A DNA stretch of 32,000 bases, taken from positions 480,001 through 512,000 of the forward strand of contig OY969938.1 of the NCBI GenBank assembly GCA_963704755.1. Direction: 5' to 3'. Position 1 is the stretch's first letter; each line of letters begins with the position of its first letter. Under the pieces are notes generated by a model that was not told the origin of the DNA, made no database searches, and was given only the letters and a program-made list of their open reading frames with translations. Position numbers and translations under genes: made by a program. Source of the stretch: an uncultured Chloroflexia bacterium. Its GTDB lineage: Bacteria > Chloroflexota > Anaerolineae > Anaerolineales > Anaerolineaceae. Shown piece by piece: positions 753 through 28,052 of this stretch.

Positions 753-2091
753 TTGAATCTGCCCATTCCTGAAGATATTAGCGATGAAGACGTTGATATC
801 AGTGTGCCAGAAGAAAAGCGCAAAATTAATGCAATTCCTTCTGATCAGGAAATTCACTCAATAGTTCATAAATGGCAAAATGGCATTCTGATTCTTCAGC
901 CGGATTTTCAACGTTATTATGTTTGGGATGAGAAAAAAGCCAGCCGTTTAATCGAATCAGCGCTCTTGTCAGTTCCTTTACCATTGATTTACCTTTCAGA
1001 AGACCCGAATGGTAACTTATCCGTAATTGACGGGCAGCAGCGTTTACACACGTTTATTTCATTTATTCACGGCAAGTATATCCATAACAACAAACCATTT
1101 GTTCTCAAAGACCTACGTGTTTTCAAGGAACTAAATGGACAGTCATTTAAAAATATCCCGGCGGTTTACCAGAATCGTTTGCGATATTTCACCCTCCGTG
1201 TAATTACCATTAAGCAGCGATTCGGATCCTCGCTTGAAGCATGAAATATTCGAACGGCTGAATACGGGCGCAGTTGCTTTGAACAATATGGAATTGCGCA
1301 ATTGTTTAAATCAAGGCCGAATTTTAACCCTTTTGAAAGAACTATCCGCATATCCTCCATTCAGAGAATTGTTAGGCCTGCAAGATGCCGATCCACGTAT
1401 GCGTGATGTTGAACTCGTTCTGCGTTTTTCCGCCTTTTATCATCATGGGTATACTGGCTATAGCAGCCCGATGAAAAAGTTTCTGAATGATGAGATGGAA
1501 ACTTATCAGAACATTACCGAACAGGATGCGGTTGCATTAAAGAAGAAATTCAAAATAACAGTGACGATAATCAAATCATTATTTGGAGAAAACGCATTCC
1601 ATCGGTATGTTGCCGGAAAAGTCGGTTCTATTGACGGTAACTGGGAGACAAAAACCTTTAACGCGGCACTTTATGACGTTTATATGAACGTTTTCAGTAA
1701 TAAAGATCGTAATCAGGTCCAAAAGTCGGCAGATTTAATCCGAGAATCGATAATCGACCTGATGTCAAACAATCAGGATTTCATTGATGCGATCCTTCTT
1801 GCCACCAGTAATACAGATCGAGTAAAAAAGCGCTTCTCTTTAATGTATCAACTGACCGATAATATCCTGGCAAAGAAACCAAAACAAGCGCGCCTGTTTT
1901 CTTATGAAATCAAAAAGCAATTATTTGATGCCAATCCTGTGTGCGAAATATGCAGTCAACAGATTTTTTCGATTGATGATGCTGCTGTAGATCACATTGA
2001 ACAGTATTGGAAAGGTGGCCAGACGACTGTGGACAACGCCCGCCTGACCCATCGTTTTTGTAACAATTCACGCCCCAGGAAAGACGCCTGA
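753..2091 (+). pseudogene. DUF262 (GmrSD/BrxU-like, DGQQR motif) protein with a C-terminal HNH nuclease, split by a +1 frame break between nt 1204 and 1233
   Basis: ORF 753-1244 carries the DUF262 hallmark VIDGQQRL (nt ~1029-1043). ORF 1234-2091, in the next frame, continues with the DUF262 motif KHEIFERLNTG...ELRN. It ends with a CxxC ... DHIEQYWKGGQTTVDNARLTHRFCNNSR HNH/zinc motif. Deleting one base near c1218 joins ...ITIKQ to DSDPRLKHEIFERLNTG. It has a TTG start and is AT-rich (20/60 GC in one counted line), unlike the flanking BREX genes. Confidence 0.75.
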
Positions 2092-4450: not shown

Positions 4451-6496
4451 ATGGAACTGGACCATCTGGATCAACTGGCTGCCACAGCATTTGAAGGCTA
4501 CACCGTACGCAAGGATCTTGCGCTGCGCTTCCGCGGCCAGTATCCTGTGCCAACCTACGTGGGTGAATTCCTGCTCGGGCGGTACTGTGCCAGCACCAAC
4601 GACCAGGAAATCACTGAAGGACTGGCGATCGTTGAGCGCCAGATGCGCGAGCGCACGGTTCGTCCAGGCGAAGAGGAGCTGTTCAAATCCAGGGCACGCG
4701 AGAAAGGCTCGATCAAACTGATTGACTTGATCACCGCCAGGCTCGATTCTTCCACCGATTCCTATCTTGCCAGCCTGCCCAGCCTGCGCCTGACCGATGC
4801 CCGGATCGAACCCGATGTGGTCGCGGCCAACGAGCGCATGCTTACCGGCGGTTTTTATGCCGAAATTACACTGGAGTATGACGCTTCGATCGCCCAGGAA
4901 AAGAACGGCAGGCCGTTTGGGATTAACAGTCTGCGCCCGATCCAGCTCTCCAAACGCGGCGTGTTCGATGAACTGGCCAAAGGCAGGCAAGCGTTTACCA
5001 CTACCGAATGGAAGGAGCTCCTGCTGCGCAGCATTGGGTTCGAGCCAGCTGCGCTGACCCCTCGTGCCCAAGACGTGCTCTTGCTGCGCATGGTCCCATT
5101 TGTCGAGCGCAATTACAACGTGGTCGAGCTCGGACCGCGAGGCACGGGTAAATCTCACCTCTATCAGCAGGTATCACCTTACTCACACCTGGTCTCAGGT
5201 GGTAAGGCAACTGTGGCGCGCATGTTTGTCAACAACAGCAATGGCGCGCGCGGCCTGGTCTGCCAGTACGATGTGGTCTGCTTTGACGAAGTCTCGGGGA
5301 TTTCTTTCGATCAAAAAGATGGCGTCAACATCATGAAGGGGTACATGGAGTCCGGTGAGTTCAGCCGCGGTCGCGAAAGCATCCGCGCCTTCGGCAGCAT
5401 CGTCTTGCTGGGCAACTTTGATGTTGACGTTGAGCACCAACAGCGCATTGGCCACCTGTTTGGTCCAATGCCCCCGGAGATGCGAAATGACACCGCCTTT
5501 ATGGACCGCATCCATGCCTTTTTGCCCGGCTGGGACATTCCCAAGATGGATAAGTCGCTTTTCACCAGCCACTTTGGCCTGGTTAGCGATTTCCTTTCAG
5601 AGTGTTTTGACCAGTTGCGCATTCAAAGTCGACTGAATGTGTTGCAGAACAGGGTGAATTTCGGGGGGGCTCTCAGTGGGCGTGACACCAACGCGGTCAA
5701 TCACACGATCAATGGGCTGCTTAAACTGGTCTATCCTAATCCGGAAATGCCCATTTCCGATGAGGACATCGAATGGGCGGTGCGCCTGGCGATGGAGTGC
5801 CGCAGGCGGGTCAAGGAGCAGCAAAAGCGCATCGGCTCGGCAGAGTTCCGCAATACGCATTTCAGCTATACCATCGGTCAGGAAGGCGTTGAGAAATTCG
5901 TTGTCACCCCAGAACTGCGCAGTGAGAAATCTATTGGTAGCGATCCATTGGCGCCTGGCCAGGTCTGGACGATCAGCCCCGGTGGTCAGGATGAAAATGC
6001 CGGGCTGTTCCGTATCGAGGTCAACGAAGGCCCGGGGAACGGAGTGCGGATCGTCAACGTCCCTGCGCCAGGGCCTTTCCGCGAAAGCGTCAAAACCGGT
6101 GAGCAGAACCTGTTGTCCCGCGCTCGCGAACTGGTCGGGGATCGCGATCCCCGCGAGCACGAATTCACCGTGCAACTGCTCGCTTTCGACACTGCTCGGA
6201 CTGGTTCTTCAGTTGGGCTGGCTGTTCTACTGGCATTTTGCAGTGCGCTGCTCAAGAAAAGCTTGAAGGGCGGATTGATCGTGGTCGGAGGTTTAAACCT
6301 GGGCGGCGGGATTGACCCAGTTTACAACGCCGTAAACGTCGCCGAACTGGCGATTGAAAAAGGCGCCACCACCCTGCTGGCGCCGATCTCGGCTCGCAGG
6401 CAGCTCAATGATCTGTCCGATGATATGGCGATGAAGATCAGTATTCTTTTTTATGCCGATGCGAGGGAAGCCTTGTTAAAAGCTCTTGTAGAATAA
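4451..6496 (+). CDS. brxL: BREX Lon-like protease/ATPase BrxL
   Basis: 681 aa. It has a P-loop (LGPRGTGKSHLYQQVSPYSHLVSGGKATVARMFVNN), a Walker-B-like VVCFDEV, and a C-terminal Lon-like domain (GSSVGLAVLLAFCSALL ... GLNLGGGI). It is the last gene of the pglX-pglZ-brxL order typical of type-1 BREX. Confidence 0.85.
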   Translation: MELDHLDQLAATAFEGYTVRKDLALRFRGQYPVPTYVGEFLLGRYCASTNDQEITEGLAIVERQMRERTVRPGEEELFKSRAREKGSIKLIDLITARLDSSTDSYLASLPSLRLTDARIEPDVVAANERMLTGGFYAEITLEYDASIAQEKNGRPFGINSLRPIQLSKRGVFDELAKGRQAFTTTEWKELLLRSIGFEPAALTPRAQDVLLLRMVPFVERNYNVVELGPRGTGKSHLYQQVSPYSHLVSGGKATVARMFVNNSNGARGLVCQYDVVCFDEVSGISFDQKDGVNIMKGYMESGEFSRGRESIRAFGSIVLLGNFDVDVEHQQRIGHLFGPMPPEMRNDTAFMDRIHAFLPGWDIPKMDKSLFTSHFGLVSDFLSECFDQLRIQSRLNVLQNRVNFGGALSGRDTNAVNHTINGLLKLVYPNPEMPISDEDIEWAVRLAMECRRRVKEQQKRIGSAEFRNTHFSYTIGQEGVEKFVVTPELRSEKSIGSDPLAPGQVWTISPGGQDENAGLFRIEVNEGPGNGVRIVNVPAPGPFRESVKTGEQNLLSRARELVGDRDPREHEFTVQLLAFDTARTGSSVGLAVLLAFCSALLKKSLKGGLIVVGGLNLGGGIDPVYNAVNVAELAIEKGATTLLAPISARRQLNDLSDDMAMKISILFYADAREALLKALVE

Positions 6497-6590: not shown

Positions 6591-7028
6591 GTGAGCAACG
6601 AATCAATAAAAAAGGTACAAACTCTGAACGATTTACGAGCTTTACTTACCCAAGACGAAACGGGGCGTGAAGATTATTTGTACCCCCACCTTGAGTTTGG
6701 TGATATGTGGTGGATTCCTGATCAGATTACGCGTTTTTCGAATACCAAGGAAAAACATCCCTGGGTAATCGTCACCGGGTATTCACCTCGAATAGCGAGT
6801 GTAATTGTAAGTCCTCGAACAAGCTCTTTTCGGTCGAATCAATTATCCCGCGGTTTACTAACCCCTGCTAACATCTTACCAGGCCTTGATAGAGAGGGAC
6901 TTCTTGTGCTCACCCTTAGGCGTCCATTTGCTACCGCGAAATTTAGTGATTTCGAATATATTGGTAGATTGCCCAAATCCTGGATCAAACAGATCCGAAA
7001 ATTCCTACAAGCTGGTAGCAGAGGGTAA
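6591..7028 (+). CDS. PemK/MazF-like (SH3-fold toxin-like) protein
   Basis: 145 aa. The GTG start lies 10 nt after the AAGGAGA Shine-Dalgarno sequence (6574-6580). The pattern GDMWWIP..KEKHPWVIV..ASVIVSPRTSS..GLLVLTLRRPF..YIGRLPKSWIKQIRKFL follows the PemK/MazF layout (GD-I-W, K.RP.VVV, V.P.TS, IG.L....M..I...L). Confidence 0.5.
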   Translation: MSNESIKKVQTLNDLRALLTQDETGREDYLYPHLEFGDMWWIPDQITRFSNTKEKHPWVIVTGYSPRIASVIVSPRTSSFRSNQLSRGLLTPANILPGLDREGLLVLTLRRPFATAKFSDFEYIGRLPKSWIKQIRKFLQAGSRG

Positions 7029-7034
7029 AAAAAT

Positions 7035-8063
7035 ATGATAAATGCCCCTGTTTTCTCTGACTACCTAAATGAATACCAATCGATTGGTATAGGCCAGTTG
7101 ATTTATGACCTCATCTATCGAACTGTAGAAAGGACAGTCCATCGCTATCCACCCAGTGTTTATTCAAAGAACCAAGCCTGGGATGAAGACGCAATTTCCG
7201 GGATATGCCATGATTTTATAATAGAAAAACTTCTAATCAAGGGGTGGCTTGATTTTTACTTATTTTCATTGAGCGAGATTGATGGTCTCAAAAGAGTATT
7301 AAAGCGTGATTTTCGCCATTATTTGATAAACAAGAAGGCACACACAGAAAAAACGAACCTGTATCTCCGAGTGAAGAAGATCTTAAACACCTCTACAAGA
7401 TTTACCACTTTACAGGAGAATGGCACTCGTGGAGTTTTTTGGGGACTTACGGGATGGGATCGTAGGAGCGTTACGCAAGACCCATATGAAGTGACTAAAG
7501 CAATGATCTTAGTGCAACTGCCAGACATGATTCGTTATCGCCCTGATAGTCACAAGGTTTCGCCATTATTAAGCAATCCTGATTTGACTCAAATGATTGA
7601 GGGCGCTCTTTTCTTCTTGGATAAATGGACAACCTTTGATGTTTTGTTTGATTCAATTTGCAATCGCTTAGGTATTATTACAGATGAGGTTATCTCTTTT
7701 GATGAGCCAATTGGAGAAGACACCGGATCAACCTTCGCGGATATTATTGCCGATCCGGAAAATTCCATTGAAACTGATTTGTCCGCTAAACAAACCGCCG
7801 AGGATATCTACAATCGCTTATCTGATCGGCAAAGAGAAGTTTTAGCGCTTCAGTTCGAACTGCAAAACCCTACTCTTGTTGATATCGGCGAGAAAATCGG
7901 TGTTTCAAAAAGTACGGTGAGTAACGAAATGTCGGCCATTGAACGAATAATCAGGAATAGTCATCCTAGTCAATTAGAGGTAGATGACGTTTTCCTGGCA
8001 TTGAAAGAAATCTTTGCGGCTAATACTCACCGATCTATCTTGGATACAAAAAGAGAGTTTTGA
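7035..8063 (+). CDS. Sigma-70 family (ECF-like) sigma-factor-like protein with a large insertion between regions 2 and 4
   Basis: 342 aa. The C-terminus LSDRQREVLALQFELQNPTLVDIGEKIGVSKSTVSNEMSAIERII (nt ~7818-7955) is a typical sigma region-4 HTH. The N-terminus AWDEDAISGICHDFIIEKLL ... FRHYLINKK is region-2-like. The start lies 6 nt after the upstream stop. Confidence 0.5.
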   Translation: MINAPVFSDYLNEYQSIGIGQLIYDLIYRTVERTVHRYPPSVYSKNQAWDEDAISGICHDFIIEKLLIKGWLDFYLFSLSEIDGLKRVLKRDFRHYLINKKAHTEKTNLYLRVKKILNTSTRFTTLQENGTRGVFWGLTGWDRRSVTQDPYEVTKAMILVQLPDMIRYRPDSHKVSPLLSNPDLTQMIEGALFFLDKWTTFDVLFDSICNRLGIITDEVISFDEPIGEDTGSTFADIIADPENSIETDLSAKQTAEDIYNRLSDRQREVLALQFELQNPTLVDIGEKIGVSKSTVSNEMSAIERIIRNSHPSQLEVDDVFLALKEIFAANTHRSILDTKREF

Positions 8064-8064
8064 A

Positions 8065-9066
8065 ATGAATACATCCAAAGTTCCGAATGATATAAGCGAA
8101 CTCTCACGCTTAAAGGCCGTGAATTTCTATCGGCAATCACAGAAATCTACACCGAGTGAATTGGAACCCGGTCAAATTTGGTCTACCCACTCTTCATTCC
8201 AGCTGCCTAACAACGAGCAATTCCACACCGATGAGCCTAAGATGGTAGTAATCCTTTTGGGAAGCGGGGCACGTTCAAAGAGGTTTGAATCAATAACAGT
8301 CGCTCCTATTTCAAATCTTACCTCAATGGCTTCAGAATTCGATTTTATTATCAGGAAAGATGAAAAAAACTCATCTTCTTTTACCTTTGATATGATGATC
8401 GAAGTATGGAATGAAACGCCTGCATTAAAAGGCCAGCTAAAGAACTTCATCGGTTCTCTTCCAGATGAAGCTATCAAATCTTTGCATCAATTGTATTCTT
8501 CGAGATTACTCGGTACGGAAATTCCTGAGAATTTGAAGAACAGAATTGGATTGAGCATCATTGCCGAGGATGACCCTCGTCTTTCATTTCAGGAAGATGA
8601 AATCAACGCTGCATCTTATCTGGCTAATGCTGCAACTGCATCTCTGAGTTTAGACATCGTAGAAGAAGAAAGCCCCGTCGAATTTTCTGATTGGCTCAAA
8701 CTTGACATTGTTCCATTTCTGGGAAGGTTATCAAGCTTTCTGAACAACCCGATTGTGGCTAGCGCGGCCAACAACATCGATTCCGAAATAGAGCAGTGCT
8801 TAATTGTGCAATTAGAAAAGAGAGAAAAGCTGATCTTTGAATTGCTCAATAGTCGCATGCGCCCCTATATGATTTACCTGAAGGCTTATTCCATCGCGCC
8901 TGAATTTATTGGGCGGAAATGCTTTGTTTCGGTCATTACAAATGAGCATAAATATTCTTCCCAAATCATCTCATTACGCGAAGATATCACTATTGAGGTG
9001 GGAAATGACGCTCATTTTCGATGTGAGAATGTGGAATCTGTAGAATTCGCAATTGAGCCTCGGTAG
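8065..9066 (+). CDS. Hypothetical protein with an N-terminal PemK/MazF-like fold signature and an unknown C-terminal half
   Basis: The ATG at 8065 lies 1 nt after the upstream stop (the ORF track's 8014 start overlaps the previous gene). The pattern GQIWSTH..PKMVVILL..ITVAPISN..DMMIEVWNETPALKGQL..FIGSLPDEAIKSLHQLY parallels the 6591-7028 product. Confidence 0.45.
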   Translation: MNTSKVPNDISELSRLKAVNFYRQSQKSTPSELEPGQIWSTHSSFQLPNNEQFHTDEPKMVVILLGSGARSKRFESITVAPISNLTSMASEFDFIIRKDEKNSSSFTFDMMIEVWNETPALKGQLKNFIGSLPDEAIKSLHQLYSSRLLGTEIPENLKNRIGLSIIAEDDPRLSFQEDEINAASYLANAATASLSLDIVEEESPVEFSDWLKLDIVPFLGRLSSFLNNPIVASAANNIDSEIEQCLIVQLEKREKLIFELLNSRMRPYMIYLKAYSIAPEFIGRKCFVSVITNEHKYSSQIISLREDITIEVGNDAHFRCENVESVEFAIEPR

Positions 9067-9075
9067 GAAGAAAAC

Positions 9076-11394
9076 ATGGAAGAACTGATTTCCTTAGTAT
9101 GTGCTGATATCCAAAAATTACAATTGGCTTTGGGGAAAAATGAAACCCAGGCCATTGATAGAGCCGTACAATCCCTCGAAAGACGGTTGTTTTCTGATCG
9201 CAGTTTCGAAAAGATAGGAGATGAGAGAGCTTTATTTTCTGCAACCAGGCTTCTTACCTCGATATACGATGAGGAAATTAAAGATCAACTTACACCGTTG
9301 GTAGATTGGCTTGATGTTATCAGGGATATCAATAACAAATTCTATGCCATTCTCAATCATGAGATCGGCCTCGATGATTTGCTATTGGCCCACCTATCAT
9401 CTTGGAAAATACTATCTGATGAGGTTCATTGCAACTATGATGAGAATATCAAGCTAAGGTTGAAAGATGCGCGGGAAAAAAATAGGGATGAACTAAAAAT
9501 TCGATCTTTCGTATCCTTATATATAGAGTACATCAGACAGCAATCTCCAATGCTAAATACTTCTGAGCTTGAGAGAGTCATTGAAGTGGTTTTAGAGAGT
9601 TATAAAGCCCTAAACCAATGGAATGCTCAAGCTCTATTTTCATTAGGCAATATAGGCGACGTTTACGGAACAAAGATTAAAGCTACACCGAATGGAACAG
9701 GAAGCATAGAATCGCTGAATGAAACTGATTTAGAAATGAAGAAAGCAGCAAACGGCGCCTTCACATTTATTAAAAGCAAATATCCCTTTGCAAAAACTTG
9801 GGATATCAATTGGGAAATAGAAAGAGGGGACATCCCGTACCAAGGGAACTCAATAGGTTTAGCATTATCTACTGGTATTCTATCTACCATCGAAGGATTT
9901 GAAATTGATCCTTACACTGCCTTCACAGGTCACGTCGAATGGAATACCGGTGATGTAAAGGCTGTTGGAGAGATAAGTGTTAAATTAATAGCAGCCAAGG
10001 ATCAAGGAATCCGAAGGGTATTTATCCCTTTGTCAAACTCAAAGGATGTACCAGATAATATCGGTTTAGATGTTGTTACGGTAAGCACTGTGGAAGAGGC
10101 CAGGAATAAATTAACGGTAAAGGCCTATATTAGTTCTAATATTCCTTTAGAAAAGCAGGCTGAATTAAAACTTAAGCAGCTAGAGATAGAGCTTTCCAAT
10201 CAAGGGATTAAGGCTACGGGGCCAATTGAGAACGGAAATTCCTTCAAGAGAATTGTTTTCACTGATTACCGTGATCAAGTTTTCGTGAACATGTATTACG
10301 GCAGAAGTGGAATAACCGCTAATGTTCAGCAAAAAAAATGTTCCTTGAAGGATAAACTGCAAGCAGCGTGTGACAGAATTATTGGAAAACAAATTACTGA
10401 AACATCAGACGAAGTGAAGCGAGACAAGTACGTCATTAAAGATCAAGATATCCAAAAGCGGGTTGAAGATTATCTCTTTGCCTTTCCAAACTCGTTACGG
10501 GAGGCTGAACAGAATTGCCAATACAGATCAAAAATTAATCAAAATGGCCAAACGGTTCGTGTTCGCCAATTTAATAACGGGACACTTACTATAGATGGCC
10601 AAGATCCCCTTTTCACTACTATTAATTCTAGTTTACAAGCCCTTTTAGGAGTCGCTTCTTCTAAAACACAGGATGATCCTAAGAGTTCGAAATTAGCAGC
10701 ACAAATAGATGCTGTAAAGGCAATTCCCTTAGGAGATCAATGGATTGGTACAGATGAGGCTGGAAAAGGAGACTACTTTGGCCCTCTTGTGGCTGCGGCA
10801 GTGATGGTTGATCGTCAAATTGCGGATCAGTTGTCAAAAATAGGAGTGAAGGATAGCAAAGAACTCTCCGATAATCGAAACAAAGAGTTAGCAATTCAAA
10901 TACAAACAATCTGTGGAAAACATGCGCAAGTAGTCATGATCCCTCCGGCCAAATATAATGCCCTTTATGAACAATTTCAAAAAGAAGGTAAAAACCTCAA
11001 TACATTATTAGCTTGGGCTCATACTCGAGCGCTAGAAGACATCTTGACTTCCTTTCCTCAAAACCAGATCACAGTAATCATCGATAAGTTCGCAGACGAG
11101 CAATATATCAAAAGCAAGCTTCTTGAAAATACAAGGCGAGCGAATTTGAATCTTATTCAGCTTCCAAAAGCAGAGGCAAATATAGCAGTAGCTGCGGCAT
11201 CAATCCTAGCAAGGGCGCAATTTCTTATTTGGCTGGAGCGGAGTTCTCAGCTACTTAACGTTTCTCTACCTAAAGGCGCATCCGATCCTAGAATCACTCT
11301 GGTCGCCCGACAGATTGTTAAAAATCAAGGCCCCGCGAAATTAACTGAGTATGTAAAACTGCATTTTAAAACCACCAAGGAAGTTCTCTCATAA
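9076..11394 (+). CDS. Multidomain fusion: N-terminal helical region, Lon-protease (S16) proteolytic-domain homolog, two RNase HIII N-terminal (DUF3378/TBP-like) modules, and an RNase HIII catalytic domain
   Basis: 772 aa.
- Lon_C-like: GTKIKATPNGTGSIESL..MKKAANGAFTFIKS..YQGNSIGLALSTGILSTIEG..AFTGHVEWNTGDVKAVGEISVKLIAAKDQGIRRVFIPLSNSKDV aligns residue for residue with E. coli Lon DGPSAGIAM...[35 protein letters not shown].
- RNase HIII: GTDEAGKGDYFGPLVAAAVMVD..KDSKELSD..VIIDKFADE (D560/E561, nt 10753-10758).
- N-domain-like segments: VFVNMYYGRSGITANVQQKK and VRVRQFNNGTLTIDGQD. Confidence 0.75.
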   Translation: MEELISLVCADIQKLQLALGKNETQAIDRAVQSLERRLFSDRSFEKIGDERALFSATRLLTSIYDEEIKDQLTPLVDWLDVIRDINNKFYAILNHEIGLDDLLLAHLSSWKILSDEVHCNYDENIKLRLKDAREKNRDELKIRSFVSLYIEYIRQQSPMLNTSELERVIEVVLESYKALNQWNAQALFSLGNIGDVYGTKIKATPNGTGSIESLNETDLEMKKAANGAFTFIKSKYPFAKTWDINWEIERGDIPYQGNSIGLALSTGILSTIEGFEIDPYTAFTGHVEWNTGDVKAVGEISVKLIAAKDQGIRRVFIPLSNSKDVPDNIGLDVVTVSTVEEARNKLTVKAYISSNIPLEKQAELKLKQLEIELSNQGIKATGPIENGNSFKRIVFTDYRDQVFVNMYYGRSGITANVQQKKCSLKDKLQAACDRIIGKQITETSDEVKRDKYVIKDQDIQKRVEDYLFAFPNSLREAEQNCQYRSKINQNGQTVRVRQFNNGTLTIDGQDPLFTTINSSLQALLGVASSKTQDDPKSSKLAAQIDAVKAIPLGDQWIGTDEAGKGDYFGPLVAAAVMVDRQIADQLSKIGVKDSKELSDNRNKELAIQIQTICGKHAQVVMIPPAKYNALYEQFQKEGKNLNTLLAWAHTRALEDILTSFPQNQITVIIDKFADEQYIKSKLLENTRRANLNLIQLPKAEANIAVAAASILARAQFLIWLERSSQLLNVSLPKGASDPRITLVARQIVKNQGPAKLTEYVKLHFKTTKEVLS

Positions 11395-11404
11395 AGGCAG
11401 AAAC

Positions 11405-12682
11405 ATGGTTACCCCACAGCTTACAACACAAATCGAAGATTTGTTGAAACGCGCTGAACTACTAGCAGAAAAACATGATTGGTCTGGAGCCGCAGATATT
11501 TGTGATGAGGCTGTCAAGGAAGCTCCGGCCAATATTTCTGTCATTGGACAACTCGGTTGGTATTTATCTCGATCCAAACGATACGCTGAAGCAATCAAAA
11601 TTTATGAAAAATTAAGCGAATTGGAACCAAAATTAGCCAAATGGCCATATATGGTTGGATATCAATACTACGATCAAAAGCTGTATAAGGAAGCTGTCAT
11701 CTGGTTCGATAGAGCATTAAACCGGCACGAAAATTACTTGGTTGTACTATATCGTAAAGGCTATGCACATTCTCAATTGAACGAAAAAGATGCTGCTATT
11801 GGCGCATTTGAAAAATGTATCAATATTTGGAAGAGTCTCGATGACCAGAATAAAGAGAAAGAAAAAAAATCCTACGCAGATGCTTGCTTCCAATTAGGAA
11901 AAATCTATTTATTGTCAGCCCAGTCAAGAAAAGCGGAAGCTGTTCTGGCTGAAGCTGTTCGCCTAGATAACCAGGATGCATATAAGTACTACGAGTACGG
12001 AAAATCTTTATTGAAGAATCAGAAACCAGAAGAAGCATTGGCTCAACTTCAGAAGGCGGAAAAACTTGAACCTCGTAAAGATTTTATTCTCGCTTATATT
12101 GCTCAGGCTTTGATGGAACTTAAAAGAATTGATGAAGCAGATAAGTTTTTAGCAAAGATTCCTGAACGATCTAGAAAGGAATATATCTGGCGAACTGTTG
12201 GAAGGGTCAGATTAGCACAAGGAAGAACCACTGAAGCTATAAGTGCTTTTAAGCAGGGGATTCGTCTAGATTCCGAAAACCATAATTCTTATTATCACCT
12301 TGGATTAGCTTATCTTGCGTGCAACGACTATCCCCAGGCATTTCAAGAATTAACTAAGGCAATAAATGTCAGAAAAGATAAATATAATCTGGACTTCCCT
12401 GAAGTAAGTCAGAAACTCGAGGAAGTTATTGAATACGCAAAAAATAACGGGATCGATTTATCCGCTGACAAGCCTATCCTTGAGAGCAAACCGATGGGTA
12501 CTATAACAAATTACAATGCGACAAGGGGTTTTGGGTTTATAAAAATGAACAGCGGTGAAGACCTGTTCTTTCATATATCCAGCGTAACCAATCCAGATAT
12601 GATCGAGGTCGGTCGTGGTGTTCATTTTGGTATTGAGGAGACACCAAAAGGGAAAAGGGCCAAAGAGGTAAAGATTCAATAA
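11405..12682 (+). CDS. TPR-repeat protein with a C-terminal cold-shock (CSD/OB) nucleic-acid-binding domain
   Basis: 425 aa. It has repeated 34-residue A/Y/L patterns (e.g. YAEAIKIYEKLSELEPK, YKEAVIWFDRALNRHEN, YPQAFQELTKAINV). The C-terminus GTITNYNATRGFGFIKMNSGEDLFFHISSV matches the CspA-type motif G.V.WFN..KGFGFI...G.D.FVH.S. Confidence 0.8.
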   Translation: MVTPQLTTQIEDLLKRAELLAEKHDWSGAADICDEAVKEAPANISVIGQLGWYLSRSKRYAEAIKIYEKLSELEPKLAKWPYMVGYQYYDQKLYKEAVIWFDRALNRHENYLVVLYRKGYAHSQLNEKDAAIGAFEKCINIWKSLDDQNKEKEKKSYADACFQLGKIYLLSAQSRKAEAVLAEAVRLDNQDAYKYYEYGKSLLKNQKPEEALAQLQKAEKLEPRKDFILAYIAQALMELKRIDEADKFLAKIPERSRKEYIWRTVGRVRLAQGRTTEAISAFKQGIRLDSENHNSYYHLGLAYLACNDYPQAFQELTKAINVRKDKYNLDFPEVSQKLEEVIEYAKNNGIDLSADKPILESKPMGTITNYNATRGFGFIKMNSGEDLFFHISSVTNPDMIEVGRGVHFGIEETPKGKRAKEVKIQ

Positions 12683-12959: not shown

Positions 12960-15954
12960 ATGCCTACAAAAAACAAAAAGAGGAAACAGCCTGATGATTA
13001 TCATCTTTTGGCCGCTAATAGAGGTTTTCGTTGGTTAGGCCCAGAGGTACCTACAACAAAAACTTTAACTACATGGGAATGTCCTAAGGGACACCAGTGG
13101 AGGGCTATTTATAATAATTTACAACAAGGCCGCGATTGCCCATTTTGTGCAAGAAAAAAGACAGCAATTGATTACCAATTACTGGCTCAAAAACGAGACT
13201 ATGAATGGTTAGGACCTTTTGTTAAAAAATACGTCATTCCGACAAAATGGAAATGCCAATTAGGTCATGAGTGGTTAGCGAGTTATCGCGAAATATTACG
13301 TGGTGATCTCTGTCCATTATGCTTTTCTACCTTTGAGAGAAAAGAGATAACTGAAAGCCGGGAAGTTTCTATAGAATCAAACGCTTCTGATGGTTTAACA
13401 ACTAATGGTGAATTATCAGAAATGGAAAATATCAATGAAGAACTCATTTTTGATTGGTGGGAAAAGAATTCTATTAAATTCCTAATGCCATTGTTTGCGT
13501 CAACAAAAAAGTTCATTCGACTTTCCACCGGTTTTTTCTCAATACAAGGTTATAACTTACTCAAGTCGTATCTTGTAAATAAACATATAGATATTCTTGT
13601 CGGTTATGACGATCGATCAAGACATGAGCTAAGAATGACATTGATCGAAGAAATAATGGAAGATTTAAGTAAATGGAAAGGAAATCGTCGCGAAGCAGTT
13701 TTAAATCTCATAGAGAAGTTAGAAAAAAGAGAATTAAGAATCGTCGATGCTCGTCTTAAGAAAAAGGACCATTCAAAAATATATATTTTTGATGGGCAAT
13801 TTGTTGCTAGTGGATCAACCAATTTAACAAAAAATGGTTTGCTGCTGAACCAAGAAGGAGATTTGGCAATTTCCAGTGCTGACAAACCTGAACGAGTGGG
13901 ATGGTGGTGCGATCAATATGAAAAATTTTGGAATGATCCTGACGCGATAGATGTTAGCCAGGTTTTATTAGATCGTTTAAAGGGGTGGTTAGGCCTGTGT
14001 AAGCCTTGGGATGTATATCTCAAAACGATTCAGATACTTTCCCCGGAAAACAAACCAATTGCTCCACGTGAAAACTATAAAGTACCTACTGAATTTCAGA
14101 TGGTGGTTGTTGCTCGTGCTATTCGTCAATTAGATGAATGGCGAGGAGCAATGATCGTTGCGTCGACAGGGTTAGGAAAAACAATCATAGCTACTCACAT
14201 AGCCTATCAGTTGCTCCACGAAGAACAAACCATCCTAAATGTTTTAATTGTCGCGCCAAAGCCAGTTAAGGATGAATGGCAAAAACGTATGCGAAGTGCA
14301 GGGGTGCCAGCATCGATACATACAAGGAACATTCTTGATATGCCATTGAATGATGATCAAAATCAGATAGCTCTAGGTGAGTTACTCGAAGCACTTTCTG
14401 AAGTTGATGAGAAGTGGTTGATAATTATTGACGAAAGTCAGCATTTTAAAAATCAGGAACGTGGAATTGGTGGAGAAAGGCGGTCCTTTTCTCGCCTAAT
14501 AGATATTGTCAATGAGAAAAAATGTAAGGTTATACTCCTGACCGCTACTCCATACGCAACGGAGCTAGATAATATTAACCACCAGCTTTTATTACTGCCC
14601 CATACATGTCCAAATGAAAAACCTCATCAACGAGCAATTCCAGGGCTTGAGTTAGGTAAGCTGTATTTGCACTCTTGGAAGGTATTGCATGTAGAAGATT
14701 TAGTAAACCTGCCCGTTGGAACGGTAATCAATACACCTTATGTTGCCCAAAATTTTGCAATTCAAAGTGAAGATGGCGACTATTTAATGTTTGGTGACAA
14801 GAAAAATTACATACCAAAGATCCAAATAAGCAAAGTAAAGGTCCCTGTTTTTTTGGAGACCTCTGTTACTAAGGCCCTTGACGAAAACTATTTTAAACAC
14901 CACAAAATACGGTATATGTCTCGCGGTAAATGGACTCACTCCACGGCTGGAGCCGAAAATGAAGCGATTATTTCTTGGGGTAGTTCGCCTTGGGCGTTAA
15001 AGGAAGTCGTTGAAAAAACAATCAGAAGAGAAAGATGGATACGATTTTCCATTTATATTCGATATAGAAGAAAGGAAAAAAGCATTAACGCCACTATTAT
15101 TAGAATTAGGAAATATGAAATATGAAGACGATGAAAAATTTATGATCTTACTTAGGCTTGTAAAGGAGTTACGCAAAGTAGGGCATAAAATTTTACTCTT
15201 TTCAGAGCGTCTAATAACAGCAGTTTATATTGAGAAAGGTTTGAAAGCTGCATTTCCCGAATTGAGAATTGCAAACACAGTAATGAGTCACGGCACCGAA
15301 TATATTCAAAAAGAATTTCGGGATGTCTATCAACTGATGGTCGGTTTTGCCCCTCGCTCAAATTCCAGAGATGATGGGTTTGTTCCGGATGATAAGTACG
15401 ACATTTTAATTACTACAGATGCTTATAGTCAGGGTGTCAATCTACAGGATGCAAGCACGGTTATTCATTATGACATAGCCTGGACTCCAGATACAATTAT
15501 CCAAAGGGCAGGTCGGATATTGCGGTTTTGGCCGGACCCCAGGCTGATCCACTTTTATGTGTTTGCTGGAACCTACCAAAACGATATTCCCCGTAATAAA
15601 CAGTCATTTAGATTGCAGGGTCGGCTCGATAAACTAATTTCTAGAACAAAAGAGGCAGAAAAATTTAGTGAAATTCCGAGTATTCCAGAAGAAACTCAAC
15701 GATTTGACAGCCTAAGAGGACTCTCATCACTACCAATTGAATTGTTGGGATATATCGAAACACAAAACTTGGAAGATAATAGACTCGAAGTCTCTACGTT
15801 TTTGACGCATTTGACAGAGTTAAAGAATAATTCTGAATACGCAAAAACAATTCCTGATGACATTACAAGTGCTTTATATGTTAGCAAGTTGCATACACCA
15901 AAACTGTATGTTTTGATTAAAGTATCAGAAGAAATATCACTGGATGATGTATGA
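12960..15954 (+). pseudogene. Zn-ribbon x2 / PLD (HKD) nuclease / SNF2-family helicase, interrupted by a +1 frame break at the A6 run 15013-15018
   Basis: - N-terminus: two copies of W.C..GH.W......GR.CP.C (DUF4379-like zinc ribbons).
- Single HKD motif: DHSKIYIFDGQFVASGSTNLTKNGL (nt ~13766-13830).
- Helicase motifs: ASTGLGKT, IIIDESQHF and LLTATP.
- After the frame break, ORF 15010-15954 supplies KILLFSER, ITTDAYSQGVNLQD and IIQRAGRILR (motifs IV-VI).
- Removing one A gives ...EVVEKQSEEKDGYDF...
- The frame-0 tail (IRRERWIRFSIYIRYRRKEK) looks like out-of-frame junk. Confidence 0.8.
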
Positions 15955-16435: not shown

Positions 16436-19400
16436 ATGGCATTTGAACCGGGAGGAATGGCAGACAAGCTTGGCAATCGCTATGAGGGACGATGGGTTGC
16501 CAAGCAGTTTCTGAGGCTAATAAACGAAGAAATACAATCTCTGACAATTGAATTGATCGGTCCCAATGAGCAGGGGGTTGATCTACTGATAGTCAAGAAA
16601 GATGGGATTCGGCAATTGCAGCAATGCAAGGCGCGATTAGCAAACAGTGAGAATTGGACTGTAACGCATTTACAGAATAAGGGGATTTTACTTAGCCTGG
16701 AAAAGCATTTATCCCGTGATCCAAAGCAAGAATTTGCCTTGATCTCGCCAATCCCAGCTAGAAATTTAGCCGACATCTGTGAGAGTGCCAGGAATTCCAA
16801 TGACCGCCCAACGGATTTCTACCAACATCAGATTTTAGATATCGGAACAGAGCGGCGTAAAACATTCCAAAAATTATGCAATGGAATAGGATTAGACCCA
16901 ACCGAAGAATACGATCTGGGATTGGCTTACAATTATTTAAAGTGCACCTACTTTGAACTTTTTCCTGATGATCAAAATAGTTGGTCAGATATATTAACCC
17001 GTGCAGGTTTCCTACTAACTGGTGAACCTGAAACTGTAATTTCCGTCCTACTTACTTATGCAGAAAATGAAGATAGATACCGCAAACCAATCTACTCGGA
17101 CGAACTACTGCAATACTTGGAGAATACGCACAAAATTTTTCCTAGGCAGCTTCAACATGATCGAAGAATTGGGCCTGCTATTAAAAATCTACAAAGTGAA
17201 TTTTCAGAATCCATAGGTCCTGGATTGATTTGCAACAAAGTTATACCGAGAAACGAGACAGCACAAATTATTGAATTTATTGATAATGAAAAAGATGTAG
17301 TCTTACATGGCGCTGCTGGAAATGGCAAGAGCGGTGTTCTATACGAACTGACCGAATACCTTAGAAATCAAAAAATCCCATATCTTCCTATACGCCTTGA
17401 TCGGAGAATACCAAATGCAAATGCCAAATTATTCGGCGAAGATATGAGCTTACCAGAATTGCCCGCCTATTGCCTTGCTGGTTGGGCAATCGGTAGAAAA
17501 AGTGTTCTTATCTTAGATCAGCTAGACGCTATCCGATGGACTTCTGCTCACTCGTCGACTGCTATGAATGTATGCAAGGAACTGGTTAGGCAAGTTCGGT
17601 CATTGCGCCGAGATGGAAAGAAAATCGTCATCGTTTTTGCCTGCCGTACTTTTGATTTGGAAAATGACCCAGAAATCAAGAATTTACTCAGCGAATTTGA
17701 AAATCAAAGTTTCGTCCAAATCTCAGTTAACGTATTTTCAGAAGAACAATTGAAAGAGGTTCTTGGCGCGGATATTGCTGCTCTTACCAATTCTCAAAAA
17801 AGAATTCTCTCGATGCCGCAAAATTTGGCCATCTGGATGCAACTGAAACAGGATGGGATAAGACCAGAATTTCATTCCGCAACCGAATTGATGCGACGGT
17901 TTTGGGAAAACCGCCGTCAAATCTTAGAGCAGAAGGCGGGAATATCTGCTGAGCAAATTAACGAATTCTTACACCGCTTACTCGACTATATGGAAAATCA
18001 AGGGGAGATTTCGGCGCCTGTTGTTATGGCGCAGCAAAAAACTAGAGTCAGAAATGCATTAATATCATATGGGGTGTTGCAAAAAAATCAAAATAGGATT
18101 AGTTTCTGCCACCAACGATATTTAGATTACCTGATCGCAGAACGGCTACTGATACGGATTTATGAAAAGAGCAGTTCTATTAAAGAATGGCTAGGCGGAA
18201 AGGAGAAACAAACTCTTTTTCGGCGAGAACAATTGCGTCAGGTTCTTGCTTCTCTAGCAGATGAATCTCTAAAAGAGTTCTTTGATAACGCTAGAACACT
18301 TTTAGAGTCAGAAGAAGTACGTTTCCACCTCAAACATCTCATTCTCCAAATGATAGGCCAGTTGGATGAGCTCACTGAAGATATCGGCAATTATTGCCTT
18401 GCTCTGGCTCGTAATGATTATTGGCAAGACCACATTCTTCAAACTGTATATTTTGGGCACCATCAATGGGTATCATATCTCCTGAATGCCGGGGTTGTTA
18501 ATAAATGGTTATCCTCCTCTGAGGATTATATAGTTAATCAAACTTTGTGGCTGTTGCGATCAGTGGCTGAACATATTCCAGACCAGGTAACCGAGATATT
18601 GAGCCCGTTCGTGAACGCAGGTGGCATGTGGCCTGAGCGTGTCTTGAATGCGATTTGCTGGAGTGAATTTGATGATTCCGAGCAGATGTTCGAGTTTAGG
18701 TTGCAATTAATAAGAATTGGTCAGGTGAAGGATTTTGTCGACTGGAAATCACTATGTGAAAAATACCCGTTACGTGCGTTTCGTTTAATAGAAGCTGTGA
18801 TTTCAACAATTAAGATGGATGACGAAGATGAGACAAAACAAAGGAAAAGTCGCCTTGAGACCTGGTATGACCATGATCTGGAGGCACTTTATATTGCAGC
18901 GAAAAGGCACCCTATTCAGACCTGGGATCTTTTGATGCCTCATGTTGAGAAAATTACCAGCGAGCAAAAATATGGTAAGGGATGGATAGAGAGAAGCTTC
19001 TCTGGTCAGGAAACGGGAATGGCCCGTGGAGTAGTCAATATTCTTATCTTGTCTGGACAGCTTCTCGCGTCCGAACAGACCGATGAACTATTAGCACGTA
19101 CAACTCCTTTTGAATATAGCATTTCGTCTGGGGTACAGGGAATTATCGTAGCATCATATACGCATCTCCCTGGAAGCTATGCACAGAAAGGAATAGAATG
19201 GTTGCTTGCCGATTCAGCGCGGTTTCAGCTAGGTTCAGGTTTCAAAGAGCCGAAATGGATGCCAGCAGCGCGTCTTATAACGGCTCTATCACCTTTCTGC
19301 ACCGAGGGTTTATTTCGTAAACTTGAAGACGCCATTATCCACTACCATGCTCCAGAAGAAAAACGGGAGGCTGAATATTGCCTGAAAGGATGGCGGGAAG

Positions 19401-21061
19401 GCTTCTTCGATCATTACTGGGGAGAGGCACAGTATTTTCTATTACCTGCACTAGACTCAAAAAGAATTCGACCAACCACTGCCGATTTGATTCGAGTGTT
19501 GGAAAGAAAATTTAGTCATTATTCAAAGGATCATTTCCTGAGATACGGATCTTCCGGTGTTGAGGTTGGTTCTAAGTTAGATCCAAATCTTGATAAAATC
19601 AGCGACCGAGCCTGGCTCAAGATTGTAAATAACCAAAAAATTGGCAAACGACATAGCCACAAGTGGATCCAGGTAGATTCTGACCATGTATTGGAAGCAT
19701 CGATTGAGCAGTTTGCCGGGAGTTTTTCCCGGATAGCCCAGCGGTTTCCAGAACGTTTTGGCCAACTCGCGCTTAAGTTTCCAGAAAATGTCGATCCATT
19801 GTACATTTCAGCCATCCTCGGGGGTCTCAAAGGAAAACAACCGGGAAATGAAGTGCCAGAATCTGAGAAAAGAACTTGGGAACCAGCCCAGATTGAGACA
19901 ATCGAAGCTGTTTTAGATAAATACCAAGCTGGTGATGACCGAGAAATTGCTATGGCATTCTGCTGGCTTATGGCTGAACGGGCTGAGGAAAATTGGTCGG
20001 ATAAAACAATTGCTAGATTAGTAGATTATGCTTGCAACCATCCAGACCCAAATAATGACAAGTTAATAATCCATTCTGATAAAACCTCTGAGGAGGCTAC
20101 AATTGAAATGCTTTTTCAGAATACGATAAATTGTGTTCGCGGAATGGCTGCTGAGGCTATCGGTAAATTTTTGTGGAATCATCAAGACTGGAAAGAAAAA
20201 CTTTTGCCCGGAATAAAGTCCCTAGTTCATGATCCTCATCCTGCGGTCCGAATGGCTGCTCTTGAAGCAATTTATCCTGTTTTAAACATCGACAAGAATT
20301 TGGCAGCTCAGTGGTTTCGCGAGGCTTGCGAAGATGATTTAAGAGTAGCGGCTTCTCCCCGAGCTTTGCCTTTTTTCAACTACGTTATTCCGAGTCACAT
20401 TGACCTAGTTGGACCTATTATTAAGAGAATGGTAATTTCCCCGATAGATGAAGTGGCATTGCAAGGTGCGAGACAGGTGACAGCTCGTTGGTTCTTTCAT
20501 GGTTATTTTGAAAATGAGTTTAGAGAATGCATTAAGGGAAAGAGTGTACACCGGAAAAGTGTTGCAGACGTCGCTGTATACTTGCTAAAAGATGAACAGT
20601 ATTCCAGAAAGTGCCAAGAAATTCTATACCAATTTATGAATGACCCAGATAAAGATGTACGCAATGAATTGCATAGTATGTTAAATCATAACTACCTTTT
20701 TGATAATCAGGAATATCAAGCTTTTATCAGAACATATATTAAATCACAAGCGTTTGCGGACAATCCCGATCTTTTTATCGTGAGCAGCAAGGAGGTCGCG
20801 GTAAATATTATTCCTTTAGCAGATGCAATTTTCACCATCTGCGAAGTATTTTCAACATCTTTAAAAGAAAAGACACGCGATATTAGTTCAAGATACCCTT
20901 ACTTGGTGTCTGAGATTTCGGCTGTTTTGCTGAGACTTTATGAACAAGCTCAGGGCGAACGAAACCAACACATTGCGGGCCGATGCCTGGATATTTGGGA
21001 CCTATTTTTCGAGAATAGAGTGGGCAGAACTTTAGAATTGACTAAAGCAATCGAACAATAA
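16436..21061 (+). CDS. 1541-aa protein with an N-terminal PD-(D/E)xK (Cap4/DUF4297-like) nuclease, a P-loop NTPase (STAND/AAA-like) and long C-terminal helical/HEAT-like repeats (Avs-like architecture)
   Basis: AGGAGA lies 7-8 nt before the ATG.
- N-terminus: GGMADKLGNRYEGRWVAKQFLRL...ELIGPNEQGVDLLIVKKDGIRQLQQCKAR (E ... D ... QxK).
- Walker A: VVLHGAAGNGKSGVLYEL (nt ~17308-17337).
- Walker B: VLILDQLDAIRW.
- C-terminal HEAT signature: VHDPHPAVRMAALEAIYPVL (nt ~20228-20285). Confidence 0.7.
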   Translation: MAFEPGGMADKLGNRYEGRWVAKQFLRLINEEIQSLTIELIGPNEQGVDLLIVKKDGIRQLQQCKARLANSENWTVTHLQNKGILLSLEKHLSRDPKQEFALISPIPARNLADICESARNSNDRPTDFYQHQILDIGTERRKTFQKLCNGIGLDPTEEYDLGLAYNYLKCTYFELFPDDQNSWSDILTRAGFLLTGEPETVISVLLTYAENEDRYRKPIYSDELLQYLENTHKIFPRQLQHDRRIGPAIKNLQSEFSESIGPGLICNKVIPRNETAQIIEFIDNEKDVVLHGAAGNGKSGVLYELTEYLRNQKIPYLPIRLDRRIPNANAKLFGEDMSLPELPAYCLAGWAIGRKSVLILDQLDAIRWTSAHSSTAMNVCKELVRQVRSLRRDGKKIVIVFACRTFDLENDPEIKNLLSEFENQSFVQISVNVFSEEQLKEVLGADIAALTNSQKRILSMPQNLAIWMQLKQDGIRPEFHSATELMRRFWENRRQILEQKAGISAEQINEFLHRLLDYMENQGEISAPVVMAQQKTRVRNALISYGVLQKNQNRISFCHQRYLDYLIAERLLIRIYEKSSSIKEWLGGKEKQTLFRREQLRQVLASLADESLKEFFDNARTLLESEEVRFHLKHLILQMIGQLDELTEDIGNYCLALARNDYWQDHILQTVYFGHHQWVSYLLNAGVVNKWLSSSEDYIVNQTLWLLRSVAEHIPDQVTEILSPFVNAGGMWPERVLNAICWSEFDDSEQMFEFRLQLIRIGQVKDFVDWKSLCEKYPLRAFRLIEAVISTIKMDDEDETKQRKSRLETWYDHDLEALYIAAKRHPIQTWDLLMPHVEKITSEQKYGKGWIERSFSGQETGMARGVVNILILSGQLLASEQTDELLARTTPFEYSISSGVQGIIVASYTHLPGSYAQKGIEWLLADSARFQLGSGFKEPKWMPAARLITALSPFCTEGLFRKLEDAIIHYHAPEEKREAEYCLKGWREGFFDHYWGEAQYFLLPALDSKRIRPTTADLIRVLERKFSHYSKDHFLRYGSSGVEVGSKLDPNLDKISDRAWLKIVNNQKIGKRHSHKWIQVDSDHVLEASIEQFAGSFSRIAQRFPERFGQLALKFPENVDPLYISAILGGLKGKQPGNEVPESEKRTWEPAQIETIEAVLDKYQAGDDREIAMAFCWLMAERAEENWSDKTIARLVDYACNHPDPNNDKLIIHSDKTSEEATIEMLFQNTINCVRGMAAEAIGKFLWNHQDWKEKLLPGIKSLVHDPHPAVRMAALEAIYPVLNIDKNLAAQWFREACEDDLRVAASPRALPFFNYVIPSHIDLVGPIIKRMVISPIDEVALQGARQVTARWFFHGYFENEFRECIKGKSVHRKSVADVAVYLLKDEQYSRKCQEILYQFMNDPDKDVRNELHSMLNHNYLFDNQEYQAFIRTYIKSQAFADNPDLFIVSSKEVAVNIIPLADAIFTICEVFSTSLKEKTRDISSRYPYLVSEISAVLLRLYEQAQGERNQHIAGRCLDIWDLFFENRVGRTLELTKAIEQ

Positions 21062-21837: not shown

Positions 21838-21879
21838 ATAATTAATTACAATCCTGATGTTTTCTATACCGGAAATAAA

Positions 21880-22512: not shown

Positions 22513-22740
22513 TTACCCTCCATACGTTAAGTATATTAGACTACAAGAACGCATTCTTATCCATATTAAGATTCATAAATTTTTATTGGACCTTTATCCA
22601 TTTATTCATGAACGACCAAATAAGGGCAATTTTTCAAGCAAATTAACTCATATAAAAGGCATTTTATAGCAAAAGTGGGACAAGAATTTCAAGATTCACC
22701 GAATAGTAGAGTAAGTGGGGAAGGAGTGATTAAAGGATAT

Positions 22741-22783
22741 CTAAAAATAAACATATTCAGGTTGTCAATATGGCAACCTGAAT
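22741..22783 (-). terminator. Rho-independent terminator downstream of the 166-aa gene
   Basis: A 10-bp perfect stem ATTCAGGTTG/CAACCTGAAT (22755-22764 / 22774-22783) with a 9-nt loop. It is followed on the minus strand by ATGTTTATTTTTAG. Confidence 0.5.
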
Positions 22784-22841
22784 TAATGCCTTGACACTTG
22801 CAAAGAAATTATTGCACCCGAGATTTTCCCTCTATATTGAC

Positions 22842-23542: not shown

Positions 23543-23564
23543 GGGCCAAATTTTGATGGATTGT

Positions 23565-23608: not shown

Positions 23609-23655
23609 GAGATAATTATACGAATACAACTTAATTAAGAAACTCGATAAATTGA

Positions 23656-28051: not shown

Positions 28052-28052
28052 C

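Follow-up and report, generated by a model that had tools for sequence, protein, structure and literature searches.

The window analysed here is a stretch of 32,000 nucleotides from the genome of an uncultured Chloroflexia bacterium (assembly GCA_963704755.1, contig OY969938.1, positions 480,001 to 512,000), and all nucleotide positions given below are those of the window. Gene D of this window (9076-11394, forward strand), an intact open reading frame (ORF) of 772 amino acids, was found to encode a genuine fusion of a Lon-type protease and a complete RNase HIII. It is the fourth gene of a five-gene cassette, A-B-C-D-E (6591-12682), in which A encodes a MazF/PemK-like protein, B a sigma-like protein, C a MazF-fold protein and E a protein of tetratricopeptide repeats (TPR) with a cold-shock domain (CSD). 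By analogy with the CalpL-CalpT-CalpS (CalpLTS) system, D may be the sensor-protease of a self-contained defence-island cassette in which RNase HIII replaces the SAVED domain of CalpL, a reading to which a probability of about 45% is given. The five-gene operon was overlooked in the initial annotation of this DNA, and the partner genes suggest a mechanism.

The fusion of a Lon domain to RNase HIII had been proposed in the initial annotation, and homology to both was upheld by searches against Pfam and NCBIfam, by family profiles and by AlphaFold2 (AF2) modelling with Foldseek comparison. Lon_C was identified at residues 218-341 (Pfam, E 1.5e-13) and RNase_HII, over its full model, at residues 557-767 (Pfam, E 1.3e-30). 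Against the NCBIfam equivalog model for rnhC (TIGR00716), D scored 169 bits, above the curated cut-off of 161.2, and the RNase HII models of NCBIfam scored it below their own cut-offs. A profile of 15 D homologues matched solved RNase HIII structures with an E of 2e-44, and with the D family profile residues 182-349 were found to correspond to the whole of the P-domain of solved Lon structures (E 1e-18 to 1e-20). The AF2 model of D, with a mean predicted local distance difference test score (pLDDT) of 85, was resolved into five units (residues 1-180, 181-348, 358-436, 448-523 and 555-772). Using Foldseek, the model was aligned to the P-domain of E. coli Lon with a target TM-score (TMt) of ~0.8 and a root mean square deviation of 2.2-2.4 A, and to the RNase HIII of Geobacillus stearothermophilus (Bst RNase HIII; 2D0A/3ASM) with an E of 1e-15 and a TMt of 0.62-0.65, the alignments to this 308-amino acid enzyme covering 336-353 columns.

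The protein begins with an all-helical N-domain (residues 1-180, 9076-9615; AF2, pLDDT about 85-95), which is followed by a Lon (S16) proteolytic domain lacking an AAA+ module (residues 181-348, 9616-10119), two modules resembling the TATA-binding protein (TBP) fold and an RNase HIII catalytic domain (residues 553-772, 10732-11391; identified with Pfam, NCBIfam and alignment). In line with the earlier remark that the helical N-terminus belongs to no recognisable family, residues 1-180 gave no family match in Pfam, NCBIfam or PADLOC, and this domain is conserved within the fusion family alone. No AAA-type match was identified in D with these three resources, indicating the absence of a LonA/LonB ATPase module, and neither a SAVED nor a CARF domain was found by Pfam, AF2 or Foldseek. 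The sole PADLOC match of D was a marginal one of its Lon part to a CARF-Lon model (E 5.8e-4), and its match to the BrxL model of NCBIfam was likewise marginal (E 0.0018).

The two TBP-like modules (module 1, alpha-beta4-alpha, residues ~356-440, 10141-10395, delimited with AF2 and hhalign; module 2, beta-alpha-beta4-alpha, residues ~445-525, 10408-10650, delimited with AF2 and the rnhC model) share a matching secondary-structure pattern in the AF2 model. Profile-profile comparison of residues 352-442 with residues 443-532 (hhalign, profiles from a 36-sequence alignment) gave a probability of 93.8% and an E of 1.7e-7 over 74 in-register columns, with 14 control comparisons using other segments of D giving E values of 0.012-0.31. 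These results support homology of modules 1 and 2, and thus the duplication of the RNase HIII N-domain that had previously been claimed. Module 2 is the counterpart of the N-terminal TBP-like substrate-binding domain of RNase HIII, the rnhC model aligning from its position 34 at residue 490 of D onward, the Foldseek alignments to RNase HIII covering this module as well, and D homologues giving sub-threshold matches to DUF3378 and RnlA_toxin. Module 1 gave only a weak match to RnlA_toxin_N (E 0.032). Outside this family, a tandem of TBP-like domains is known from RnlA, an anti-phage RNase (PMC3710099).

Active site residues of both enzymes were examined in an alignment of 36 diverse D homologues with identity down to ~26%. 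The Lon serine was retained as S259 within the motif GNSIG (9850-9852), as had been noted before, and HMMER comparison with E. coli Lon (1rr9, a construct of residues 585-784 in which S679A is chain index 95 and K722 chain index 138) aligned S259 to S679 and K303 (9982-9984) to K722, the second lysine of GGLKEK. The earlier doubt that the catalytic lysine might be replaced by serine arose from taking the wrong lysine for the catalytic one; the serine in question, S301, aligns to the non-catalytic K720. T284 (9925-9927) aligns to T704 of E. coli Lon. S259, K303 and G257 are invariant among the 36 homologues, at least 90% of which share T284. S259 and K303 make up a canonical Lon Ser-Lys dyad. 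With regard to the nuclease, the DE..D signature reported in the initial annotation was extended to a full DEDE set, D560 (10753-10755), E561 (10756-10758), D670 (11083-11085) and E700 (11173-11175), which aligns to D97/E98/D202/E232 of Bst RNase HIII, the catalytic DEDE residues of that enzyme. All four are invariant in the alignment, as is the motif GKGDYFGP. As the catalytic residues of the Lon and RNase HIII domains are invariant, both enzymes of D are under selection to remain active.

The fusion was found to be rare. A word-indexed search of 5.8 billion proteins identified 15 full-length fusion clusters, and when 1.84 billion representatives (clusters at 50% identity) were searched exhaustively with HMMER, with only residues 1-350 of D as query, ~35-45 representatives of 706-798 amino acids with the same N-terminal layout were identified, Lon_C and RNase_HII both being present in ten of ten sampled. 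Scanning 185,579 species genomes, one genome per species, with two peptide patterns placed the fusion in at least four species, all of them Chloroflexota metagenome-assembled genomes (MAGs), counts which are a lower bound given the use of two patterns. The fusion comes mostly from Chloroflexota, to which all named carrier genomes, each a MAG, belong, and no full-length relative of D was found in plasmid or phage collections.

Gaps between the five genes of the cassette are only 1-10 nt, and the order A-B-C-D-E is the same in the window, in related loci L001-L005, L008-L010 and L012-L014, and in the P0145 contig. The flanks of the cassette vary from locus to locus and consist nearly entirely of defence genes, including type I/III restriction-modification, TIR-NB-ARC-WD40, CHAT, pAgo, pPIWI_RE, DUF499/DUF1156 and Multi_ubiq/E2/ThiF systems. 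One copy is interrupted between B and C by an IS110 element (L013, 7531-8739) and is otherwise intact, and one cassette-related locus adjoins an integrase. The cassette thus behaves as a mobile, self-contained unit. Genes called in the window and in 14 related loci included no cas gene. PADLOC v2 gave no system-level match, returning only generic TPR and CSD models in addition to the marginal CARF-Lon match, while an Rfam scan of the whole window identified no RNA family and consensus scans around the cassette found promoter and terminator sites to be no more numerous than in shuffled sequence.

The GC content of the cassette is 40%, compared to 55% for the PglZ-BrxL genes and 62% for the core gene glmS, consistent with the AT-rich island described earlier and with its being a horizontally acquired defence island. 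The proximity of brxL (4451-6496) to D had also been pointed out in the initial annotation. The spacing proved accurate, as brxL ends 2.58 kb upstream of D. A functional link was not supported, as among the 12 loci with sufficient flanks 11 were found to have D in the same operon with no BREX (bacteriophage exclusion) genes nearby, leaving BREX beside the cassette in the window only. This gene context, together with the difference in GC content (40% and 55%), led to the rejection of D as a BREX component, its brxL neighbour being incidental. The further candidate of a housekeeping RnhC variant was rejected on rarity and defence-island context, in agreement with the view that the fusion is not a common housekeeping form in the host phylum. 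The RNase HIII part had earlier been proposed to act as an effector or sensor, which was judged the most reasonable reading.

Gene A (6591-7028, forward strand; GTG start with AAGGAG 12 nt upstream) is the first gene of the cassette and encodes a MazF/PemK-like protein of 145 amino acids, which holds the same position in all loci of the A-B-C type. PemK_toxin (Pfam) was identified in six of seven orthologues (best E 6.7e-6, model positions 2-106 of 109). The A proteins possess an invariant His-Pro-Trp at the position of the MazF catalytic Arg-Pro and an invariant Pro-Arg-Thr at that of the catalytic Thr. The active site of A could be modified, or it could be a purely structural relic. Sequence searches of the PDB with profiles of A and C gave no matches.

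Gene B (7035-8063, forward strand) encodes a sigma-like protein of 342 amino acids, the C-terminal half of which resembles regions 3-4 of sigma-70. Sigma70_r4 was identified with Pfam (E 2e-7), the family profile matched SigA in the PDB (E 5e-6), and residues 168-299 matched a bona fide sigma factor with a probability of 95.6% (hhalign, E 1.2e-8). For residues 1-170, these comparisons gave neither a signal of sigma region 2 nor a known family. The 61 homologue clusters of B are all of ~330 amino acids.

Gene C (8065-9066, forward strand) encodes a MazF-fold protein of 333 amino acids, its start being set at ATG 8065, rather than TTG 8014, by orthologue alignment and P0019. The fold of C was recognised by structure prediction, a family assignment at sequence level being absent. 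The AF2 model (pLDDT 82, falling below 50 at residues 228-239) consists of a MazF-fold domain (~30-131), a helical region (134-193) and, beyond a disordered linker, a beta domain at the C-terminus (241-330), and it matched MazF structures with a Foldseek TMt of 0.66-0.78 and a probability of 1.0. No DUF2080 match was identified in C. Proteins of a second clade of C possess an N-terminal HxxxCxxC motif, and the zf-HC2 anti-sigma family (Pfam) was identified in seven of 32 members, with a best E of 8.8e-4. The linker contains a single strongly conserved short motif among 32 sequences, VASAAN in the window (residues 231-236, 8755-8772, forward strand), with [VA]A[SHRY]AA as its clade 1 form and LAAA[ED] as its clade 2 form; this motif is a candidate Lon cleavage site and degron.

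Gene E (11405-12682, forward strand) encodes a protein of 425 amino acids with TPR repeats and a C-terminal CSD (TPR families and CSD identified with Pfam, E 1e-11), its score against the retron Se72 effector-like CSD model of NCBIfam, 50.8 bits, falling short of the cut-off of 82. In each of the 14 loci with sequence reaching far enough, variant clades included, the gene immediately downstream of D encodes a TPR(-CSD) protein.

In these variant clades, partner genes upstream of D differ from those of the window. L007 and L016 have, in place of A-B-C, a protein of ~115 amino acids and one of ~280 amino acids that combines a CxxC zinc ribbon with an XRE-type helix-turn-helix (HTH), while in L015 the protein at the position of C lacks a MazF domain. 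The partner proteins of L007, L016 and L015 keep a motif of the [LI]AA type (RLAAAS, TIAADS and LALAAS) and a C-terminal region of ~95 amino acids. The C-terminal module of L015 aligned to that of C from end to end with an E of 0.007 (controls 0.19-0.52), and profile comparison of the L007 region with that of C was not significant. These weak similarities suggest that a constant linker and docking domain may be combined with interchangeable output domains. The L007 pair was also considered as MqsR/MqsA-like, which was dropped as the matches obtained were HTH_3 at E 0.067 and HigA-2 at E 0.8, with nothing for the small protein in Pfam or the PDB.

An additional set of genes, Multi_ubiq/Prok-E2_E/ThiF (E1), was observed after the cassette in L005 (10060-11907), L012 (14331-16372), L013 (14751-16804) and L014 (14360-16401). 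This ubiquitin-like set always trails the cassette in the clade in which C bears the zinc anti-sigma motif, which could mean that the two are linked in function or that a second system was transferred together with the cassette.

The closest parallel in domain logic was identified with CalpLTS. CalpL consists of an N-domain, a Lon domain and a SAVED domain, and upon binding of cyclic tetra-adenylate (cA4) it forms filaments in which the Lon domain of one subunit cuts the CalpT bound to its neighbour (bioRxiv 10.1101/2024.05.08.593097). CalpT comprises a MazF-like domain together with a small C-terminal one and is cut within a poorly structured LAA|A sequence, the new ...LAA end acting as a degron, such that the sigma factor CalpS is set free once the MazF-like fragment has been removed; the response is timed by CalpL's SAVED domain, which breaks down cA4 (bioRxiv 10.1101/2024.05.08.593097). 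D has the same arrangement of an N-terminal domain, a Lon Ser-Lys domain without ATPase and a C-terminal sensor predicted to cleave its ligand. C resembles CalpT in its modelled MazF fold, its disordered Ala-rich linker and its small C-terminal domain, with zf-HC2 in addition in clade 2, and the adjoining sigma-type protein B, with its sigma regions 3-4, would take the place of CalpS. The systems differ in that the sensor of D is an RNase HIII with two TBP-like modules and not SAVED, so that the expected ligand is an RNA:DNA hybrid rather than cA4, and in that the loci examined contained no CRISPR-Cas genes, whereas CalpLTS is associated with type III CRISPR. In addition, the cassette includes the conserved MazF-like protein A and the TPR-CSD protein E, and while CalpS is a sigma factor resembling those of extracytoplasmic function, B is a protein of ~330 amino acids without a recognisable region 2. 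On this comparison, the cassette looks like an independent assembly of the same logic.

Should the analogy hold, the RNase HIII/TBP part of D would bind RNA:DNA hybrids arising from an invading phage or other mobile element, and the CSD of E may assist by attaching to the single strand next to the hybrid. The Lon domain would be activated by hybrid binding, probably as several D molecules assemble on the hybrid, and would cut C within its Ala-rich linker and so expose a C-terminal degron ending in ...AA. Housekeeping proteases would then clear the MazF-fold/anti-sigma part of C, and the sigma-like protein B, possibly also A, would be freed to change transcription or arrest growth. Cleavage of the hybrid by the RNase H activity of D would remove the signal and reset the switch. 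The more specific proposal that D is a CRISPR-independent innate receptor, in which RNase HIII with doubled TBP modules acts as a self-limiting hybrid sensor that signals through cleavage of a MazF-fold anti-sigma to a new sigma-like factor, is regarded as somewhat unlikely.

A number of results weigh against the proposed sensor-protease role of D and its place in a CalpLTS-like cascade. The Lon domain of D is nearer to those of the LonA/LonB type than to that of CalpL, and CalpL was not found in the best 60 of 70 PDB matches (E <= 0.01) nor in the top 50 Foldseek matches. Because of this closer relationship to LonA/LonB, the resemblance of D to CalpL is one of analogy, that is, of convergence on the same logic, and not of membership in the Calp family. 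As residues 1-170 of B show no region 2, B may not be a true sigma factor but a regulator that binds DNA. The presence of two MazF-like proteins leaves the role of A unaccounted for, and the role given to E is a guess. The intact RNase H site is as suited to an effector as it is to a self-limiting sensor. The likeness of the C-terminal module is weak in L015 and absent by profile in L007, and PADLOC has no model for the cassette, for which the defence role and mechanism alike are predictions from sequence.

D and its cassette were also compared with other known proteins and systems. RNase HIII (RnhC, 2D0A of G. stearothermophilus) has in common with D the type 2 RNase H fold, the DEDE residues and the TBP-like N-domain. 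It is, however, a stand-alone enzyme of ~300 amino acids, whereas D has 772, with the TBP-like module doubled and RNase HIII situated behind the Lon domain and a helical domain of 180 amino acids, in a rare and patchily distributed operon of defence islands. BrxL likewise carries a domain of the Lon_C type and is found in defence islands. It differs in having an N-domain of its own as well as an ATPase domain of the AAA+ type, which D lacks, and D occurs in other loci without BREX. BrxL is reported to be without the Ser-Lys dyad (PMC12839542), which D keeps. The toxin RnlA (RNase LS) is also an anti-phage protein in which tandem TBP-like domains (NTD-NRD) are N-terminal to an RNase domain, and it has been proposed to be functionally linked to RNA:DNA hybrids (PMC3710099). 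Unlike D, with its RNase HIII, RnlA has a HEPN catalytic domain, no protease and different partner genes. In the type III-E system of Craspase (gRAMP-TPR-CHAT), Csx30 and CASP-sigma, recognition of nucleic acid similarly leads to cleavage of a sigma-bound inhibitor by a protease, and a TPR protein is present. The protease of that system is nevertheless a caspase-like CHAT protease and not Lon, its recognition is guided by CRISPR RNA, and the TPR protein of the cassette, E, bears a CSD and no protease.

Different outputs of the cassette were also considered. It may be that D triggers the release of a toxin in the manner of abortive infection, the output being an RNase toxin, namely the MazF-like protein A or the MazF-fold domain of C, held inactive in a complex until the Lon domain of D cleaves or degrades an inhibitory partner after sensing infection, with B serving as an autoregulator of the operon. 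The match of A to PemK/MazF over the whole model with its invariant His-Pro and Pro-Arg-Thr kept, the MazF fold of C, and the resemblance of the small protein and zinc-ribbon/XRE-HTH protein of L007/L016 to a toxin-antitoxin pair are all in keeping with this. The canonical MazF Arg is, however, replaced in A and the equivalent position is not conserved in C, the proteins of clade 2 of C bear a zinc anti-sigma motif, and the MqsR/MqsA-like reading of the L007 pair is without statistical support. Furthermore, B, conserved no less strictly than the other genes, far exceeds the size required of an autoregulator, and the MazF-like domain of CalpT works as an anti-sigma and not as a toxin (bioRxiv 10.1101/2024.05.08.593097). 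Toxin release is thus considered unlikely. It is quite unlikely that D is mainly a nuclease effector, whose RNase HIII would strip RNA primers, R-loops and hybridised transcripts and so block replication of the invader, with Lon only controlling D or its partners by autoprocessing or turnover and relaying no signal. Such an effector would agree with the invariance of the four catalytic residues and of GKGDYFGP, with the doubled TBP-like module, which suggests stronger or more specific binding of hybrids, and with the tandem TBP-like domains of RnlA-type defence RNases and their link to RNase H (PMC3710099). It would leave unexplained the co-inherited sigma-like and MazF-fold/anti-sigma-like genes and the conserved Ala-rich linker of C, the Lon dyad being just as invariant as the nuclease site; cells also already possess RNase H activity, and an unregulated additional RNase HIII would be unlikely to tell self from non-self.

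The cassette could alternatively be a lineage-specific, non-immune module of Chloroflexota, for housekeeping or stress, that would watch for R-loops or replication stress and tune transcription through the sigma/anti-sigma pair. RNase HIII is normally an enzyme of genome maintenance, all named carrier genomes are Chloroflexota MAGs, and the phage link of the cassette is predicted from gene context. The occurrence of the fusion in at least four of 185,579 species and in ~35-45 clusters among 1.84 billion proteins speaks against such a module, as does its constant location among defence genes whose identity varies by locus. The same applies to the 40% GC of a cassette within an island adjoining core genes of 62% GC, and to the copies found interrupted by IS110 and beside an integrase. 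A housekeeping role is therefore very unlikely, and the analogue of CalpLTS with RNase HIII as its sensor remains the preferred reading.

Other features were identified in the window besides the cassette. At 12960-15125 and 15010-15954 (forward strand), a protein with a phospholipase D (PLD) nuclease, a treble-clef zinc finger and a DEAD/SNF2 helicase, of the type 'phospholipase D-like anti-phage protein'/DrmD/DpdE, is encoded in two parts by overlapping ORFs, PLD and the helicase N-lobe lying in the first and the helicase C-lobe in the second; this could be a frameshift, a pseudogene or a programmed event. It is followed by a STAND-type NTPase of 1541 amino acids with C-terminal HEAT repeats (16436-21061, forward strand; PADLOC PDC-M54A, E 2.6e-19), for which there is no NCBIfam name. 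At 753-2091 (forward strand, 40% GC), just upstream of PglZ, 11 nt are shared by an ORF for GmrSD_N (DUF262) and an HNH ORF, in what has the look of a type IV restriction module, split or made of two genes, within or beside the BREX genes.

The 3' end of glmS marks the exact point at which the GC content rises from ~39% to 62% (23343-23829; glmS 23829-25742, reverse strand), placing the whole AT-rich defence island directly downstream of this gene. The region downstream of glmS is the classical attachment site of Tn7-type elements; the window showed neither a transposase nor a Tns gene. At the island junction lie three small ORFs for which no family match was obtained (21304-23342, reverse strand). 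In the high-GC sequence beyond, an AAA ATPase (513 amino acids) is directly followed by an Hsp70/MreB-like protein (530 amino acids) at 26510-29645 (forward strand).

Neither the Lon-RNase HIII fusion nor the cassette was found to be described in the full-text literature searched, in which few subscription journals were covered. To our knowledge, few bacterial immune systems use a transcriptional switch instead of cell killing. The known protease/anti-sigma/sigma cascades, CalpLTS and Craspase-Csx30-CASP-sigma, both rely on CRISPR recognition. By analogy with these, the cassette would be a protease/anti-sigma/sigma immune switch whose sensor domain is new to this role. If this is the case, the same signalling logic would have been assembled independently with a different input, and RNA:DNA hybrids, such as replication primers, R-loops and reverse-transcription intermediates, would serve as the signal of invasion. 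Such hybrids would then constitute a bacterial pathogen-associated pattern, with RNase H acting as a sensor domain and not as a repair enzyme, and four gene families now annotated as hypothetical would gain a function. D would also represent a compact, possibly hybrid-activated protease with a defined Ala-rich substrate motif, which could serve as a molecular tool.

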